Shown: positions 3-7,670, counted from the stretch's first letter. The stretch: DNA of 9,044 nucleotides from a virus (IMGVR_UViG_2648501110_000020), one strand, 5' to 3'. Program-made: numbers and translations. The notes: generated from the sequence alone by a model not told the origin.

Positions 3-89
3 TGGGTAGTCATGTGGGATGGCTGGTTCAGACTTCAGGATATGGTTGAGGGTTACCTGGTGATGAAGTCTCTTGATCAGGAGATCTGA
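3..89 (+). mobile_element. 3' end of an IS50-family (IS4 family) transposase gene, partial; the 5' part lies outside the window
   Basis: Frame 3 is open from the window edge to TGA at 87-89 and translates WVVMWDGWFRLQDMVEGYLVMKSLDQEI. This aligns with my recollection of the Tn5 transposase C-terminus (...WEGWEALQSKLDGFLAAKDLMAQGIKI) at roughly half the positions. The stop codon lies inside the terminal repeat, as in IS50. Confidence 0.55.
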
Positions 90-100
90 TCAAGAGACAG
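82..100 (-). mobile_element. 19-bp terminal inverted repeat of an IS50-type element (Tn5 inside-end sequence); element terminus at position 100
   Basis: The reverse complement of 82-100 is CTGTCTCTTGATCAGATCT, which matches 19/19 the Tn5 inside end as I remember it, including its two GATC Dam sites. It overlaps the stop codon of the upstream transposase-like frame. Confidence 0.65.
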
Positions 101-516
101 GTGTAGATCAGGGGGATGAGCAATTAACACCAGAAGAGCGAAAATCCCGAAAAGACGCTCTTGCGAATGCCTTCCCGGCTATTAACTTTGACAATGGACG
201 TTCCGATTCACCTGATTTTTGTGAATTATGGCCAATACATAGCGACCTGAACAAAACTCGCCTGAAAAATACTGTTCTGCCCTCTGGTTTACTGTTTGTA
301 GCACACAAATACGACCCAACAACGCCCTGGATTAATGCCCGTAAGATGGCAGAGAAATTTTCCAGCCCGTTACTAACAATAAATGGTGATGGGCATACAT
401 TAGCTCTCACCGGAGTTAATTTATGTGTAGATAAAGCAGTTGTACATTACCTGATCACTCCACAAAAAATAGAAAATATATACTGCCCAGGAAATTCTGA
501 AGCAGAAATACAATAA
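101..516 (+). pseudogene. 5'-truncated alpha/beta hydrolase gene (C-terminal catalytic region only); the ORF-track start at 73 is a TTG inside the IS end
   Basis: The translation contains ...LLFVAHKYDPTTPWINARKMAEKFSSPLLTINGDGHTLAL..., the arrangement of the catalytic Asp and His at the C-terminus of alpha/beta-hydrolase (TAP-like / S33-type) enzymes. There is no in-frame ATG near the 5' end, and the frame is closed by stops at 61-66. The coding sequence begins exactly at the IS terminus. Confidence 0.55.
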
Positions 517-536
517 TTTCAAAATATTCCGCTATT

Positions 537-572
537 TGCTCCCAATGCAAAACATATATTGCATTGGGAGCA
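537..572 (+). terminator. Hairpin downstream of the hydrolase fragment: 13-bp perfect inverted repeat with a 10-nt spacer, T-rich tract a few nt further on
   Basis: 537-549 tgctcccaatgca and 560-572 tgcattgggagca are exact reverse complements. The sequence tattcatatttttg follows. The T-run is not immediately adjacent, so the terminator call is tentative; it could instead be a protein-binding palindrome. Confidence 0.35.
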
Positions 573-699
573 TATTCATATTTTTGTTATTATTGTATGA
601 AATCGTCTCATGTACACGGTCCTTTTTTCGCCGAAAACTGATATTACTTTAATCAAAAGTTGACGTGCCAGATTCGAAGTAAATTTATAAAATATCAAA

Positions 700-1005
700 T
701 CAATATACATTTTGCACCTTCGAGATAGTAATGACTGTTACTGTAACATGAGTTACAAACAGCTTCATACCCAGAGCTACTGATGTATCAACTCGATTCA
801 ACAATACCCGATATTTATTCCATGCCTCCAGCAACGATCTTTCTTCCTCCGTTGCGATTTCCAGATCTACAGCATCCTGCAGTGGCGCAATATACTCACT
901 GAATTCCTGGATGTAGAACTGTGTGGTGACGGTCTTCCAGCCATTCAGCTCCTGCTGTATCGAAGCATACCAGGCTATTTCAATATCGCTATGCTGCGGC
1001 AGCAT
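700..1005 (-). CDS. Orphan protein with a tail-fiber-assembly (Tfa) C-terminal domain, 101 aa, lacking the Tfa N-terminal domain
   Basis: Residues ...[39 protein letters not shown] are near-identical to the C-terminal region of the tfa gene at 3517-3750 and of lambda Tfa. The start ATG (1005-1003) is preceded by an AAGGGG Shine-Dalgarno (complement of 1011-1016) with 5-nt spacing. The C-terminal tail ([26 protein letters not shown]) is unrelated to Tfa and is encoded by repetitive gttac/gtaac DNA. Confidence 0.55.
782..902. repeat. Direct repeat copy A of tfa 3' coding sequence (partner 3553-3673)
   Basis: Hand alignment of 782-902 against 3553-3673 gives about 105/121 identical positions with no gaps, including a 19-bp perfect block tttcttcctccgttgcgat. 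Both copies are in the same orientation. Confidence 0.8.
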
Positions 1006-1061
1006 TTAACCCCTTGTAATTCATCGCCATAATTGATTTAATTCACAAATAAAACTATAAC

Positions 1062-1730
1062 ATGGTGAAATTAATGAAAAAAAACACAGATGATGGGGCT
1101 AAAATTTACACACCACTTACCCTAAAGCTTTATGACTGGTGGGTTTTGGGAGTATCAAATCGGCTTGCATGGGGATGTCCTACAAAGGAACACCTTCTTC
1201 CACACTTTCTGGAACATTTAGGTAACAACCATCTGGATATTGGTGTTGGAACTGGGTTTTACCTTACTCACGTACCTGAGAGTAGTCTGATATCTTTAAT
1301 GGATTTGAACGAAGCTAGCCTGAACGCGGCATCTACAAGGGCTGGGGAATCAAAAATTAAACATAAAATTAACCATGATGTTTTTGAACCTTATCCCGCG
1401 GCGTTACATGGTCAATTTGATTCCATTTCCATGTTTTACCTTCTTCACTGCCTGCCTGGAAATATATCTACAAAAAGCTGTGTAATACGCAATGCGGCGC
1501 AGGCCTTAACTGACGATGGAACTCTATACGGAGCCACAATTCTTGGCGATGGAGTTGTGCACAATAGCTTCGGTCAAAAACTGATGCGCATTTACAATCA
1601 GAAAGGCATCTTTTCAAACACAAAAGATTCCGAAGAAGGCTTAACACATATACTCTCAGAGCATTTCGAGAATGTTAAAACCAAGGTTCAAGGTACTGTA
1701 GTAATGTTTTCCGCTTCAGGGAAAAAATAG
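1062..1730 (+). CDS. Class I SAM-dependent methyltransferase (Rossmann fold), probably small-molecule or protein rather than DNA methyltransferase; alternative start ATG 1074
   Basis: Motif I (hLDIGVGTGFY) and a post-II acidic/hydrophobic motif (FDSISMFYLLHCLPG) are present. No DPPY/NPPY or PCQ/ENV motif of DNA methyltransferases is seen. GGTGA precedes the ATG at 1074 by 6 nt, so the true start may be MKKNTDD. An intrinsic terminator follows. Confidence 0.7.
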   Translation: MVKLMKKNTDDGAKIYTPLTLKLYDWWVLGVSNRLAWGCPTKEHLLPHFLEHLGNNHLDIGVGTGFYLTHVPESSLISLMDLNEASLNAASTRAGESKIKHKINHDVFEPYPAALHGQFDSISMFYLLHCLPGNISTKSCVIRNAAQALTDDGTLYGATILGDGVVHNSFGQKLMRIYNQKGIFSNTKDSEEGLTHILSEHFENVKTKVQGTVVMFSASGKK

Positions 1731-1737
1731 CATCCAA

Positions 1738-1776
1738 CCGCAGCACGTTCTTGCATAAGGCGTGTCTGCGGTTTTT
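1738..1776 (+). terminator. Rho-independent terminator after the methyltransferase gene
   Basis: Stem ccgcagcacg (1738-1747) pairs with cgtgtctgcgg (1761-1771) with one bulge, followed by TTTTT (1772-1776). Confidence 0.55.
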
Positions 1777-2094
1777 CAACTATTCAGATACATCACTCCC
1801 ATCACATTCATTCCTCCGCATCATAGGCATATAGGCTATATCACCTTGATATTTTCTTCTTCAGATAAAAACTGTTATCTATGTATACTTTTAAACCCAA
1901 TCCGTGTAGAGTCTCTGCATAAGATAGTTTGCAGTTGCCACTTCAGCTTGCGCCATAAACCGCCTGATTTTTGCCGCCACCTGTTAGCATTCCTGTATAC
2001 CTGAAACGACAATGTTTATCTACGAACTTTAAGAACACCCAGGATAAAAATTGTCAACTATATCATATATAACACATTACTAATTCGAGGCTAT

Positions 2095-2208
2095 ATGAAC
2101 AGCATACTGATAATCACTTCGCTCCTTATCATATTCAGCATTTTTAGTCATGCTCTAATAAAATTAGGGATTGGCATATCCAATAACCCAGACAAAACCG
2201 ATGTATAA
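2095..2208 (+). CDS. Putative 37-aa hydrophobic peptide ([37 protein letters not shown]), not in the ORF track
   Basis: ATG at 2095 is preceded by GAGG (2086-2089) at 5-nt spacing. The translation has one predicted transmembrane helix followed by a short polar tail. Nothing is known to be homologous; the call rests only on RBS and hydropathy. Confidence 0.3.
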
Positions 2209-2277
2209 GTCAACATATCCTGAATCAGACATACAATATCGCAATGAAAATCAATAATATTTTAAGGAATATCTTCA

Positions 2278-2510
2278 TGAAATCAAAAGACACCCTAAAG
2301 TGGTTCCCTGCGCAGCTTCCTGAAGTAAGAATTATCCTAGGGGATGCTGTAGTGGAAGTAGCAAAACAGGGAAGACCTATCAATACCAGAACATTGCTTG
2401 ATTTCATTGAAGGAAACATAAAGAAAAAGTCATGGCTGGATAACAAAGAATTATTACAAACAGCGATATCAGTTCTTAAAGACAACAAAAATTTAAATGG
2501 TAAAATGTAA
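2278..2510 (+). CDS. Hypothetical 77-aa protein (ORF-track frame 2244-2510; start at 2278 preferred)
   Basis: AAGGAA (2264-2269) lies 8 nt upstream of the ATG at 2278. The translation (MKSKDTLKWFPAQLPEVRIILGDAVVEVAKQGRPINTRTLLDFIEG...) has protein-like composition, unlike the overlapping antisense ORF 2225-2653. I recognise no family. Confidence 0.4.
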
Positions 2511-2737
2511 TATAATAAACTTACTTTTTTATCATTTTTCCACTTTAACAACATTTTGCTCCACTTTTCCACGACCAAACAACTTGAAATCTGGTTAAAA
2601 TAACACGCAACACTATTCTTCTTCCTTGAGTCCGCCCGGAACTCGAAAAACAAACCGAGTTAAGGCCATTTTTCACAAAATCGATTTTGGGTCTCACCAA
2701 AATTACGGGGTTGCATACGCATTCGTTTATTTTCGAA

Positions 2738-2803
2738 CGTGTACATACAAATATGTACAAAAATAATCAAAATTATTTTCTGAGATGCATTATGATATGT
2801 ACA
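2738..2803 (+). promoter_or_regulatory. Cluster of TGTACA palindromic hexamers and ATATGTACA repeats upstream of the recombinase gene; candidate operator or recombinase-binding sites
   Basis: TGTACA occurs at 2740-2745, 2754-2759 and 2798-2803. ATATGTACA occurs twice (2751-2759 and 2795-2803). All lie within 90 bp of the recombinase start at 2829. No convincing sigma70 -35/-10 pair was identified by eye. Confidence 0.3.
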
Positions 2804-2828
2804 CCAATTTCGTATAGAAGATCTCACT

Positions 2829-3419
2829 ATGTCTCGAATTTATGCTTACTGTCGGGTATCAACTCTGGAACAGACAACCAAAAATCAACGTCGGGAAATC
2901 GAAAGTGCAGGTTTTAACATCAAATCTCAGCAAATAATTGAAGAACACATTAGCGGCTCAGCAGCAACCAGTGAGCGTCCTGGTTTTAACCAGTTGCTTG
3001 ATCGACTGAAAAGAGGTGATGCATTGATTGTCACAAAACTGGATCGCCTCGGTTGTAATCCAATGGATATCAGTAAAACGGTGGAACAACTGACCAAAGC
3101 AGGTATCAAAGTGCATTGCTTAGCATTGGGGGGCGTTGACCTGACCAGTCCACCTGGAAAAATGATGATGCAAGTAATTTCAGCAGTCGCTGAATTTGAG
3201 CGAGACCTTTTACTTGAGCGTACTCATTCAGGGATATTAAGAGCACGGGGCGCAGGAAAGCGATTTGGTCGCCCACCTGTGTTAAATGATGAACAAATAC
3301 AGAGGGTACTAGAGCAAATTAAGTCAGGTATAAATATAAGTGACATTGCCCAAGAATTCAAAACCTCGCGGCAAACCATTTTAAGAGCTAAAGCAAAAAA
3401 TCAGACACCTGATATATAA
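2829..3419 (+). CDS. Small serine recombinase of the resolvase/invertase family (196 aa), in the pin position convergent on tfa
   Basis: The N-terminal catalytic motif YCRVST (serine nucleophile) is present, with [30 protein letters not shown] and GRPPVL blocks in the order seen in Tn3 resolvase and Gin/Pin/Hin, plus a C-terminal helix-turn-helix region ([18 protein letters not shown]). It is clearly diverged from PinR/PinE/Gin (not MLIGYVRVSTNDQ...). Confidence 0.85.
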
Positions 3420-3516
3420 AAATAATCTCGGTGTGAGATTCCTTACGTTTTCCAAGCCCCCCTTCCTAGCCTTAAATGGAAAGATACTTCTAATTATAGA
3501 ATTTATATATCTTACC

Positions 3517-4091
3517 CTACGGTAGGGCTGGCCATTCAATATCCGGTGCAGTTGATGTATCAACACGGTTCAGCAACACCCGATACTTTTTCCAGGCTTC
3601 CAGCAACAAGGTTTCTTCCTCCGTTGCGATCTCCAGATCCACAGCATCCTGAAGCGGCGCAATATGCTCACTGGCTACCTGCATCAGGCTGTTTTTTGTT
3701 TCTTCCGCCTCCCGGATCCGGAACAGTTTTTCTGCTTCCGTATCCTTCACCCAGGCTGTGCCGTTCCACTTCTGATATCCCCTCCCGGCGATAACCAGGT
3801 AACATTTTCCGGTAACGGACCGAGTTCAGAAATAAATAACGCGTCGCCGGAAGCCACGTCATAAACCGTTTTACCCCGATGATCTTCAACGAGATGCCAC
3901 GATGCCTCATCACTGTTGAAAACAGCCACGAAGCCTGCCGGAATATCTGGCGGTGCAATATCGATACTGTTTGCTGGCAGACCTGTATGAGGCGGAATAT
4001 ATGCGTCACCTTCACCAATAAATTCATTAGTTCCTGCCAGCAGATTATAAATTTTTATGGTCCGTGGTTGTTCACTCATTCTGAATGCCAT
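3517..4091 (-). pseudogene. tfa: tfa (tail fiber assembly protein) interrupted by a frameshift near 3771-3785; ORF-track pieces 3747-4091 and 3517-3750
   Basis: The upstream piece ([41 protein letters not shown]...TWLSPGG) matches the lambda Tfa N-terminus. The downstream piece, in a different frame, continues ...[26 protein letters not shown]...[17 protein letters not shown]...[13 protein letters not shown]. The frame change occurs at GGGGATATCAG (minus-strand sense) just after a G4 run. The start ATG overlaps the stf stop as TAATG. Confidence 0.8.
3553..3673. repeat. Direct repeat copy B of tfa 3' coding sequence (partner 782-902)
   Basis: See copy A. Confidence 0.8.
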
Positions 4092-7006
4092 TATGCAAGC
4101 CTCACAATGTAGTTAAATGCGATGTTTTTGACAGTGTTTTCCGCGTTACCAGCAGCGTTAACGGTGATGGTGTGTCCATGTGAGCCAATCGCAACAGAGT
4201 GCGTATGAGCACCAATACCGACAGTATGTGCGTGAGCACCTGCAGATGCAGCTGTGCCGCTGACACTATGAGTGTGCGCTCCTGCAGCACTTGTATTCAC
4301 ACTGGCCGCAGACACTACCTTATGTACTGACCCATTTTGTGACCACTGGCTGACTGCTGATGCGCCTGTGACACTATGAGTATGGTTTCCGGCACTTGCG
4401 GCTGTACCGCTCACACTGTGCGTATGCGCCCCGGTGTTATTCGTGGATTTAGTGCCGTAATCAAACGACGATGTGGTTTTCGTCCCCAAATCCGTACTGG
4501 ATGCACTGGCGCTGTGGGTGTGCGATTTAATGCCGTCCTGTTCCTGAGACAATACGGCCCGACCACTGGCAGGTTTGCCCTTAATCGTCCAGCCACGCAT
4601 ATCAGGGATCACGCCTGACGGATAAGCGGTTGCAAGTTTCGGGTAAGCGGATTTGTCAAAAGTCTGCCCCTGCATCAGGGCATAACCAGACGGAACGGTA
4701 TCTGATGGCCACGGGATTGGTGCGCCAGGCGGATAAAACTGCTCTGATGGTGTATAGAGTGAATAAACTGTACCGTCCGTTAACCCTTCCGGCTTATTAG
4801 CAGAATATGCTGGTGACGTATGAATAGTCACGCTGGCATTACTGGTATAATCCCATTGAATATTTACACCAGTCGCATAATTTCCGATTGCAACGTAAAT
4901 ATCGTAAGTATCACCAGATGTATTGACCCAGGCAAAATTTGTAAACCCTGTCGATGTGCGCTGCCATAAAGCACCAGTAATCCCCTTCGGATTACCATTA
5001 CCTGCACGCAAAACAAGTTCAGATATACCTGCCTGTTGAGGTGACCCCACGTTAAATCCCGCGCCACCAATCAACGTAATTGAAACAACAGAACTCGCCT
5101 GTGGCATGGTTACCGTTGCTAATTTGAACCAACCAGCACCACCGCTGAATGACATTGTTGTTGAGTTAAGCGTACCAATATCTTTCGGCGTCAGTGTTAT
5201 ATCCGCTGAAAGCGCCTTACCATTCACCTTACGGGCAGAAGGTACCCGACCATTCGCATTATCATTAGCTGCTTTCACTGCTTTCGGTGTCGCGGCAAGC
5301 GTTTCAGATGCGCTGTTGGTTGCACTACTGAGCTGGACAATTCCTTTTTGTGCTGTCGTAGCGTCCTGAGCAGTATATTTCCCGTTAGCAAGGTCATAGG
5401 CTGCCTTTACCGACTTTGGCGTTGCCGCCAGCATTTCAGATGTGCTGTTGGTCGCGCTGCTGAGCTGAACTATCCCTTTCTGTGCTGTCGTTGCATCCTG
5501 TGCGGTGTATTTCCCGTTAGCCAGCTCATACGCGGCCTTAACGGCTTTTGGCGTTGCCGCCAGTGACTCGGAAGTGCTGTTAGTCGCACTGCTGAGCTGT
5601 ACTATCCCCTTTTTCGTCGTGCTCGCATCCTCAAGCGCCACGGCGGATGCAATATCCTCTGCCCGTTTTGCCGCTGTCTCGGCGCGCGTTGCCGCGGATT
5701 CCGCCGTACTTTTGCTCTGAGCTGCCGCCGTCGCACTGCCAGCTGCCTCTGTCGCCTTCGTGGATGCCGTCGTGGCGCTGCCCTTTGCTGCTGACGCCTG
5801 TCTGGTCGCCTCATCTTTTGAAGCAGACGCAGATGATGCCGATGACGCCGCCGAACTGGCGGACGATGCGGCAGCCGTTTTTGAGGATTCTGCGCTGGTT
5901 TCCGACGCTTTCGCGTTCGTCTCGGATGTCTTCGCTGCGGAAGCAGACCTCGCTGCTGCGCTGGCCTGTTCAGTGGCTTCGCCAGCCTTCGTTGTGGCTG
6001 TTGAAGCGGACGATGCGGCGCTTTCTGCCGATTTTCCGGCAGCGGTGGCACTGGCTGAGGCCTGCCCGGCACTTGTTGACGCGGCACTGGCAGACGACGC
6101 AGCCGCTGTTTTTGAGCCTGCCGCAGCTGAGGCGCTCTGTCCCGCTGCCGTCTCAGAAGACCTGGCGTTCGTCTCGGACGTTTTTGCCGCCTTCGCGGAA
6201 TTTGCTGCCGCCGTTGCCGAGGAAGCTGCGCTACTGGCGCTCGAGGATGCGTTCGTTTCTGATGATTTTGCCGCCTCTTTTGAAGCCGACGCATCCCGGG
6301 CTGAGGTGGCAGCTTCTGACGCTTTCGTGGTCGCGGTGGATGCAGAAGTGGCGGCTGATTGTTGTGACGCTGCAGCATTCGTTTCTGACGTTTTCGCGGC
6401 AGCGGCACTGGTAGCTGCCGCGCTTTTTGAGGACTCTGCAGCGGCAGCACTTTTTTCCGCTTCAGTGGCCTTTGTTGATGCCGTTCCTGCGCTGGAAGAC
6501 GCTGACTGAGCCGACGAAGCGGCCTGTCCGGCTGACGTGCTGGCTGCACGTGCTGAATCTGCAGCATCAGTCGCATGGGTTGCCGCCTCACGGGCAGATG
6601 TGCCGGCATCACTGGCTGACTTCTTCGCGGCTGCCGTGTTCTGTGCCACCACGGACGCGTTACGCGCCACCTCTTCCACCATCTGTTCAAAACGGCGCAG
6701 TGCCTCCGGACGGGCATCATCCTCCGTCATGGCACCGAGAAAATCATTCAGCGTACCGGGTTGAGAATCTTCATACACGGTGATGGTCCCGGCATGTGAC
6801 GGCGGGAAGCCCTCCACCAACAGAATAACGCTGTACTGCCCGTACTCAACGTCCATGCTGTAACGCCCGGCTTCATCCGGATTTTCTGAGGCCAGCGTGT
6901 TCACCACCACCGTGGTGCTGTTACGTTTTGCTTTCAGCTGGATTGTGCAGTTCTGTACCGGTTTTCCTGTGCCGTCTTTCAGTACACCTGAAATCTTTAC
7001 TGCCAT
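4091..7006 (-). CDS. stf: Side tail fiber protein Stf, 971 aa; the ORF-track start at 7012 is an upstream GTG
   Basis: The N-terminus [26 protein letters not shown]... is as in lambda Stf. GGGGTG precedes the ATG at 7006-7004. There is a long Ala/Ser/Thr-rich low-complexity region, three tandem ~44-aa phage-fiber repeats ([24 protein letters not shown]), and a C-terminal tip rich in HxH motifs (HTHS x4, HAH, HGH). Confidence 0.9.
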
Positions 7007-7015
7007 ATTCACCCC

Positions 7016-7070: not shown

Positions 7071-7670
7071 TCAGAATTTATAACCGACACCCACGATGAA
7101 ACCGTCAGTGCGCCAGTCACCACTGCCGGAACCTTCATAAGCAATATCAATGGCCACGGATTCGGTCGGGTTAAACTGCACGCCAGCCCCCCACGCCAGA
7201 GACGTGTTGCTGTGGCGACCGTCATCACTTCCGGTCAGCACGTCGTGCGTTTTCCCCTTGTTGTCAGTTACGCGGAGATAATCCCCGGAGAAAGTCGACA
7301 CACGGCTGTAAGCCACACCCGCCATCGCATACGCGCTGAACCATTCATTCACGCGCACAGACGGCCCCGCCATCACGCTGAACCAGCGGTTACGCACGGA
7401 ATCTTCATGCCAGCGGGTATCGCTGTAACGGGTAAGCTGGCGATTCTTGTCTCCTGCATAGCTGAATGACGTCACCAGCCCCAGTGTGTCCGTAAACTCA
7501 TAACGGTATTTCACGTTAATCCCGTTCAGATCATCACTGCCGGGAACGTTCGTCCGGGCATGAAGATACCCCGCGCTCAGCGTGGACTGATGTTCAGACG
7601 CCCATGCAGGCGCACCGGATACGGCCAGACAAATGGCTGCGGACAAAATGGCGGCATAAAGTTTACGCAT
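7071..7670 (-). CDS. lom: Lom outer-membrane protein (Ail/Lom family beta-barrel), 199 aa
   Basis: The translation [38 protein letters not shown]...[10 protein letters not shown] is essentially lambda Lom, with a signal peptide and a C-terminal aromatic residue. GAGGT Shine-Dalgarno lies 7 nt upstream (complement of 7677-7681). Confidence 0.92.

Follow-up and report, generated by a model that had tools for sequence, protein, structure and literature searches.

The DNA analysed here, in the following called the window, is a stretch of 9,044 nucleotides (nt) from the virus IMGVR_UViG_2648501110_000020. In it, two direct copies of the 3′ part of the tail-fibre assembly gene tfa enclose a methyltransferase gene, the small genes ynaM and ydfK and the serine recombinase gene pin. 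The comparison with prophages, isolated phages and complete genomes revealed that this interval is mosaic, composed of two known cargo blocks which are inherited independently. It is likely that the interval consists of these two blocks lying beside the leftover fragment of an older tfa gene, within the accessory arm of a lambda-like prophage. A first-pass annotation of the same sequence had described a direct tfa repeat of about 121 bp with about 87% identity, the four genes between its copies and the AT-richness of the interval. These observations are borne out: the copies were located at 781-901 and 3553-3673 with 86.8% identity (self-BLAST), Pfam and the calls of open reading frames (ORFs) return the same four genes, and the guanine-plus-cytosine (GC) content amounts to 31-45% over approximately 450-3600, compared to 49-64% within the side tail-fibre gene stf. 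The features of the interval are as follows.

700..1005, minus strand: tfa fragment, orthologue of K-12 tfaX, a decaying pseudogene with a Caudo_TAP match over amino acids 30-77 only
781..901, no strand assigned: direct repeat copy 1; in other prophage contexts, block A likewise starts at 781 on its left
1062..1730, plus strand: class I S-adenosylmethionine (SAM) methyltransferase, orthologue of K-12 ybcY (Pfam Methyltransf_12/23/25/11; PHROG 2132)
1736..1778, plus strand: intrinsic terminator of the methyltransferase gene, hairpin followed by U5 (-20.7 kcal/mol, z = -4.6; none of 200 shuffled sequences folds equally well)
2095..2208, plus strand: ynaM/ynfT, a hydrophobic small protein of 37 amino acids (Pfam YnaM, E = 6.5e-28)
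2277..2510, plus strand: ydfK/ynaE, 77 amino acids, annotated as cold-shock protein (PHROG 2718)
2740..2767, plus strand: promoter-like site for pin, TGTACA-16-AATAAT, from the promoter scan
2829..3419, plus strand: pin, small serine recombinase, a divergent PinQ/PinR allele (Pfam Resolvase, E = 9e-38; HTH_7, E = 1.8e-11)
3517..4091, minus strand: resident tfa, tail-fibre assembly gene, frameshifted in the window into ORFs of 114 and 77 amino acids (Caudo_TAP)
3553..3673, no strand assigned: direct repeat copy 2, within the 3′ part of the resident tfa

Block A (781-1771) comprises the tfa fragment and the divergently transcribed methyltransferase gene with its own terminator, and block B (approximately 1772-3529) comprises ynaM, ydfK and pin. 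Among 5426 complete E. coli genomes, the set on which all genome counts of this study are based, the direct junction of tfa and methyltransferase was detected in 2356 and block B in 2723, and both blocks are contiguous as in the window in 311. The cryptic prophage DLP12 of E. coli K-12 matches the window at 806-1771 (98%) and at 3530-3945 (94.5%), and instead of 1772-3529 it has 36 bp (L002 8077-8112) between tfaD and ybcY. Homology to the prophages Rac and Qin starts at 1734 and 1721, respectively, and runs with about 95% identity through tfa into stf up to 4259, with no match further left. The terminator hairpin of the methyltransferase gene is the joint of blocks A and B and is common to all three architectures. 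Terminator-like stems downstream of tfa and of pin fold no better than shuffled sequences. In isolated lambdoid phages all four states are found, namely both blocks, the methyltransferase only, the pin block only, or neither, as in lambda. Block A was also observed to begin at 781 in a prophage at another attachment site, the trp/ompW site.

The interval shows the characteristics of a lambdoid moron or accessory region, that is a deviant base composition, signals of its own and a variable presence downstream of the tail-fibre genes. Its genes act as individual morons with their own promoters, lying antisense to the late operon in AT-rich DNA. Of the earlier description as an exchangeable or excisable moron at the position downstream of the tail fibre, the variability among prophages and phages holds, and the single unit does not.

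The direct repeat belongs to the history of tfa. In the self-BLAST of the window the two copies align without gaps over 121 bp in direct orientation (E ~1e-33), and a repeat search extends them to 767-912 and 3539-3684 (146 bp at 82%). Both encode, on the minus strand, the C-terminal part of Caudo_TAP, the tail-fibre assembly domain. Within the core of 121 nt there are 16 nucleotide differences, which lead to 11 synonymous codon changes and alter the amino acid in only 4 codons. Since the differences are mostly synonymous, the copies diverged as functional tfa genes in different lineages. Judged by their sequences, the copies are two diverged tfa alleles, and the direct repeat results from the presence of the conserved 3′ part of tfa in both the resident gene and a fossil fragment.

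This fragment resembles Tfa only at approximately 775-925 and is annotated as partial with a missing N-terminus. It is 98% identical to the tfaX region of K-12. In K-12 a stop codon interrupts the ORF, in phage 2G7b a deletion of 7 bp does so, and the 3′ truncation point varies from locus to locus. For the first 26 amino acids, neither a Tfa match nor a full-length parent was found among 50,697 phage records. A function as truncated chaperone was also considered and ruled out, because the ORF is broken in K-12 and 2G7b. In the resident tfa, the split is due to a 1-nt deletion in a short T run near 3777/3778, compared to the intact gene of 191 amino acids in E. coli O103:H2 12009. The gene is intact with 576 nt in O103:H2 12009, Rac, Qin and the phages Turner and mEp460. 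Either the side-fibre chaperone has truly been inactivated by this mutation, or the frameshift stems from a sequencing error.

We propose that a tail-fibre module with its own tfa and downstream cargo recombined into the prophage upstream of the older tfa. The older gene would have lost its 5′ part in this process, and the left repeat copy would be the scar of the module exchange. Here, the conserved 3′ segment of tfa would act as a recurrent breakpoint for exchanges of fibre modules. Phage 2G7b (L006 6201-6298) has kept just 98 bp of this 3′ end next to the methyltransferase, beyond which unrelated tail-fibre genes lie. It is a plain example of the replacement of a fibre module, and the breakpoint falls within the conserved segment. 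In the window, the stretch 2784-3680, covering pin and the tfa 3′ end, is a divergent patch with 86-93% nucleotide identity to Rac, Qin, Turner and mEp460, amid flanks of 97-100%. It ends inside the conserved tfa 3′ segment as well. From this divergent patch between near-identical flanks, it follows that a distinct pin allele was imported by recombination.

A duplication in place, which arose when the cargo entered the 3′ part of a single tfa and whose copies then drifted, would likewise account for the direct orientation and for cargo lying between the copies. We consider it improbable. The ratio of 11 synonymous to 4 amino-acid changes would not be expected with one copy drifting as a pseudogene from the duplication onwards, and both ends of the fragment join unrelated sequence. 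In addition, the fragment travels with the methyltransferase beside quite different tfa alleles and even beside fibre genes other than tfa. The exchange of fibre modules, with the fragment as its scar, is the explanation we follow here.

The presence of pin beside tfa raises a further possibility, for which the nature of the recombinase is relevant. Pin of the window is identical to PinR and PinQ at 167-168 of 196 amino acids (85-86%), and its RVST motif aligns with the serine region of the invertase Gin. The domains, this identity and the shared tfa-pin-ydfK-ynaM neighbourhood (95% nucleotide identity) place it among the PinQ/PinR-type recombinases. In a sequence search of the PDB it is about equidistant from the Gin invertase (E = 3e-27) and the gamma-delta resolvase (E = 1e-22). 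PinQ, and equivalently PinR, was reported to be active: it inverts the 1797-bp P segment of the e14 prophage in trans between inverted sites (Kirigo et al., NAR 2025, PMC12529663), and this inversion blocks adsorption of phage T2 (Kirigo et al. 2025, PMC12529663). For Rac and Qin themselves, the study reports no internal rearrangements among database genomes (PMC12529663). Across the whole window, the gix/hix/pix-type core AAACCNNGGTTT with at most 2 mismatches gives 2 matches compared to 4.45 expected by chance, and the published e14 crossover site with at most 3 mismatches gives 0. By orthology, Pin would be an invertase that acts solely in trans, on pix-type sites in inverted orientation at other places in the genome.

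The sequence upstream of pin was inspected as well. The hexamers of the promoter-like site at 2740-2767 are those of the reported constitutive sigma-70 promoter of pinQ, and H-NS binding was reported in the ydfK/pinQ spacer (K-12, PMC3946193). Two allele-specific substitutions give rise to a perfect palindrome, TGTACATAcaaaTATGTACA (2740-2759), and to a third copy of ATATGTACA (2795-2803). At the corresponding positions, Rac, Qin, Turner and mEp460 carry TATGCACA and TATGAACA. As conserved Pin sites these elements were rejected, for the palindrome is imperfect in the four relatives and coincides with the reported -35 region of pinQ. Both elements overlap the pinQ promoter as reported. An inverted pair at 2695-2721 and 4419-4445 (27 nt, 74% complementary), which encloses pin, tfa and the stf 3′ end, was treated as chance, because it is no better than 34 others in the window and not dyad-symmetric, and no inverted variants occur among the matches.

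The tfa fragment and pin could also be relics of a decayed invertible tail-fibre switch of the Mu G, P1 C or e14 P type, since a small serine recombinase adjoins tfa in the window just as it does in Mu, P1 and e14. The Tfa C-terminal domain is also common to P1 gpU, and PinQ is able to invert the e14 P segment (PMC12529663). Such a descent is nevertheless doubtful at best. The tfa copies are direct, whereas the chaperone genes of these switches are always mutually inverted. Neither a remnant of a second fibre C-terminus nor inverted crossover sites nor a significant inverted repeat around pin was detected. In e14, pinE is transcribed away from its own segment; pin of the window, unlike pinE, converges on tfa. 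Furthermore, the similarity of Pin to Gin is modest and roughly equals that to the gamma-delta resolvase.

The first-pass annotation had suggested that 903-3552 is one excisable or exchangeable cassette, which the serine recombinase or homologous recombination removes, leaving one repeat copy behind. The direct repeat is real and highly significant, the recombinase does lie inside the bracket and the cargo varies among relatives, but we regard this cassette as very unlikely. For the excision test, a chimeric query of left flank, repeat and right flank was used with a cut-off of at least 80% coverage, and none of the 5426 genomes contained the deletion product predicted for recombination between the repeats. 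The left flank, a gene for an alpha/beta hydrolase, is present in 1207 genomes, and in 883 the flank, the tfa fragment and the methyltransferase are contiguous. In two sampled genomes with a non-contiguous flank the cause was in both cases the insertion of an insertion sequence (IS), namely ISEc8 in O157:H7 and an IS3-family element, and the fragment and the methyltransferase are kept behind it. The boundaries of presence and absence lie at 1771/1772 and approximately 3529 (DLP12 type) or at approximately 1721-1734 (Rac/Qin type), not at 903 and 3552, and separate two blocks.

The repeat itself also argues against the cassette. Efficient RecA-dependent exchange is usually cited as needing about 23-27 bp. 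The longest exact run common to both copies measures 19 bp, which together with the divergence of 13% would suppress RecA exchange between them. A deletion by the serine recombinase, as had been assumed, finds no counterpart in the data either, for the window holds no pix- or gix-like site, the orthologue PinQ is a published invertase reported to act on inverted sites, and rearrangements of Rac or Qin are absent from database genomes (PMC12529663). The repeat is probably no recombinase site, and it drives no excision at a frequency visible among the sequenced genomes.

That the repeated segment is a small-RNA gene in two copies, conserved for this reason, is hardly credible: the candidate E. 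coli small RNA IS009 of Rfam does match both segments, with 224 bits at 3551-3749 (minus strand) and 107.6 bits at 779-982 (minus strand), but the second match is under the gathering score of 117, both lie on the tfa coding strand within the Caudo_TAP domain, and the substitution pattern is that of protein-coding constraint. The IS009 model seems to capture a conserved Tfa-coding segment and not an independent RNA gene. All other matches in the Rfam scan of the window were far under threshold.

Some points weigh against the history of two blocks and a fossil tfa fragment as proposed here. The order of events is taken from comparisons and is undated, and other histories would fit them as well as the scar of a module replacement, for instance an insertion of block B into a DLP12-type arrangement or its deletion from one. 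Absence from finished genomes is compatible with rare excision within a population or in the course of phage growth, when Red recombination can use short homologies. The Pin allele shares only 86% of its residues with the tested PinQ, with no enhancer or binding site identified, and the inversion in trans by PinQ rests on the report of one laboratory. Finally, the H-NS and promoter data come from K-12, a strain other than the source of the window.

The methyltransferase of block A is 98% identical to the ybcY region of K-12 at the nucleotide level, and its conserved start is probably the ATG at 1074. A DNA methyltransferase, be it orphan or part of a restriction-modification system, is not supported, for Pfam assigns only the generic domains Methyltransf_11/12/23/25 and no DNA methyltransferase domain. 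The AlphaFold2 (AF2) model has a predicted local distance difference test (pLDDT) score of 90.6, and its best PDB neighbours are PmtA (phosphatidylethanolamine N-methyltransferase), JHAMT (juvenile-hormone acid methyltransferase), phosphoethanolamine methyltransferase and NodS. Among the 50 PDB structure neighbours listed for the model there is no DNA methyltransferase, and the matches at the sequence level agree. The predicted substrate looks like a small molecule or a lipid. Homologues with 56-65% identity were found in Salmonella and Enterobacter as stand-alone chromosomal genes amid housekeeping genes, with no restriction partner. The phage methyltransferase therefore looks like a captured host gene. 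The spacer between ybcY and tfaX is known from genomic SELEX (gSELEX) data of K-12 to contain sigma-70 promoters and to bind H-NS (PMC3946193).

In seven of the eight loci examined, including remnants without tail genes, the methyltransferase is intact. In K-12, ybcY has lost the ATG and 2 nt beside an A8 run and is annotated as pseudogene. Two of the tail-less remnants may be described here. In strain MS 200-1 the order is ompT, methyltransferase (intact), a tfa fragment, an int fragment and argU. In O157:H7 it is hydrolase, ISEc8, tfa fragment and methyltransferase (intact), followed by the chromosomal yci genes. The first-pass annotation had recognised no defence system in the interval, and PADLOC agrees, giving only a weak generic match of the methyltransferase to mad2 (E = 6.8e-4, 16.6 bits) and no match for the other four proteins scanned.

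The two small genes of block B are highly conserved. YnaM of the window is identical to YnaM and YnfT of K-12 in 37 of 37 residues, and a peptide of this type figures among newly identified small proteins (PMC6001520). YdfK is identical to K-12 YnaE and YdfK in 74-75 of 77 residues (96-97%). With Rac, Qin, Turner and mEp460, the ynaM-ydfK part and its spacers share 98-100% identity. In Enterobacter and Limnobaculum, homologues of ydfK occupy other prophage moron positions with no recombinase nearby; the members of the ynaM-ydfK-pin block are therefore not obligately linked.

With regard to the function of YdfK, a structural comparison gave a first hint. The top PDB neighbour of its AF2 model (pLDDT 77.6) is YmgB/AriR (2oxl), with a target template modelling (TM) score of 0.81, a root-mean-square deviation of 2.0 Å and E = 0.045, and the neighbours after 2oxl have E > 2. 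In NCBIfam, YdfK matches YcgZ below threshold (E = 0.0087). An hhalign comparison of YdfK with YcgZ/YmgA/AriR yielded P = 4.4e-4 and a probability of 33%, with the common motif LG-AV...G..N...L. Modelling and profile comparison suggest a possible distant relationship of YdfK/YnaE to the YcgZ/YmgA/AriR connector proteins. In our literature search, no paper was found that connects YdfK/YnaE with YcgZ/YmgA/AriR.

Between the methyltransferase terminator and ynaM, the 323 bp of 1772-2094 are conserved with 97-100% identity across Rac, Qin, Turner and mEp460. They contain no annotated gene and give a weak, non-significant Rfam match to CssrB (E = 0.16, minus strand). This region may serve as a long leader for ynaM-ydfK. 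For the reported hexamers of the K-12 ydfK promoter, no exact match was found in the window.

Further features lie outside the repeat bracket.

73..516, plus strand: 3′ end of a gene for an alpha/beta hydrolase (TAP-like; Pfam Abhydrolase_4), cargo outside the repeat bracket
537..572, plus strand: terminator-like hairpin after the hydrolase gene, the sole site from the terminator scan and identical with inverted repeat I4
4091..7012, minus strand: stf, side tail-fibre gene, an ORF of 973 amino acids annotated as prophage tail fiber protein
7071..7670, minus strand: lom (Pfam Ail_Lom, E = 1.5e-120)

The window is 99.8% identical to E. coli O103:H2 12009 over 8.9 kb. There, its counterpart belongs to a lambdoid prophage and is flanked by ompT and the alpha/beta hydrolase on one side and by the stf-lom-J tail genes on the other. 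The locus is the site of DLP12 in K-12 (argU-ompT), and the annotated span of DLP12 takes in ompT. The full hydrolase gene has 1485 nt and adjoins ompT in O103:H2 12009 and in the phages Turner and 2G7b. These two isolated lambdoid phages carry ompT and the hydrolase of 494 amino acids beside int, and in these E. coli strains the region around ompT thus belongs to the accessory DNA of phages. Non-canonical content is thus not confined to the space between the repeats, as had been stated before, for the cargo extends further left to the hydrolase and ompT. The interval is part of a longer non-essential accessory arm of a lambda-like prophage, the counterpart of the b region of lambda. Within stf, three tandem units of 132 nt were observed at 5250-5645 (identical to the reference copy at 100%, 77% and 62%), and shorter repeats of several families are dispersed over 5800-6450, where the central part of the protein is rich in alanine and serine.

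It is conceivable, though rather unlikely, that the cargo is selected by the host. The methyltransferase could then be a domesticated enzyme of lysogenic conversion acting on an envelope lipid or metabolite, YdfK a connector of the YmgB/AriR type and Pin a fibre switch acting in trans. This idea is based on the intact methyltransferase kept together with the tfa fossil in tail-less remnants, on ompT and the hydrolase as neighbours and on the PmtA-like model. If true, the accessory arm would be a small stress and defence island.

Our results may also be of use for the reading of similar loci. A repeat around AT-rich genes together with a recombinase mimics a mobile cassette, and is here a by-product of lambdoid mosaicism at tfa. 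For annotation pipelines, it is useful that 3′ fragments of tfa are probably recombination scars, that the IS009 model of Rfam fires on them, and that Pin-type recombinases beside tfa need not act on their neighbours.

The comparison with known systems leads to the conclusion that the arrangement is nothing new as a system. Annotations of its parts and their order exist already for K-12, for hundreds of other genomes and for isolated phages, and the impression of an undescribed accessory module disappears, since all four genes have K-12 names and PHROG families. The tfaD-ybcY-tfaX region of DLP12 resembles the window in its site by ompT and in the combination of tfa, a convergent methyltransferase and a truncated direct tfa fragment. 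It differs in that ynaM-ydfK-pin is missing, the start of ybcY is destroyed and appY takes the place of the hydrolase. Rac (tfaR-pinR-ynaE-ynaM) and Qin (tfaQ-pinQ-ydfK-ynfT) have the order and orientation of block B and tfa, but no methyltransferase and no second tfa copy, and their block abuts the prophage end.

Phage inhibition by PinQ/PinR (PMC12529663) involves an orthologous recombinase in the same neighbourhood. However, it needs the e14 P segment with inverted sites, of which none is found in the window, and the allele of the window is 14% divergent. The switches of Mu (Gin/G), P1 (Cin/C) and e14 (PinE/P) share with the window a recombinase beside fibre or tfa genes and the Tfa C-terminal domain, whereas the tfa copies of the window are direct and inverted crossover sites and an alternative fibre C-terminus are missing. 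The complete arrangement is present in phage Turner (PP925837) with 97% identity, in the order int, ompT, hydrolase, tfa fragment, methyltransferase, ynaM, ydfK, pin, tfa, stf, lom and J; unlike in the window, tfa is intact (576 nt) and the pin allele is of the K-12 type. The phages Kati and PhiR68_2 carry the complete arrangement, too. With the morons of lambda (lom, bor) and the lambda b region, finally, the cargo of the window is of the same kind, and no difference in kind separates them.

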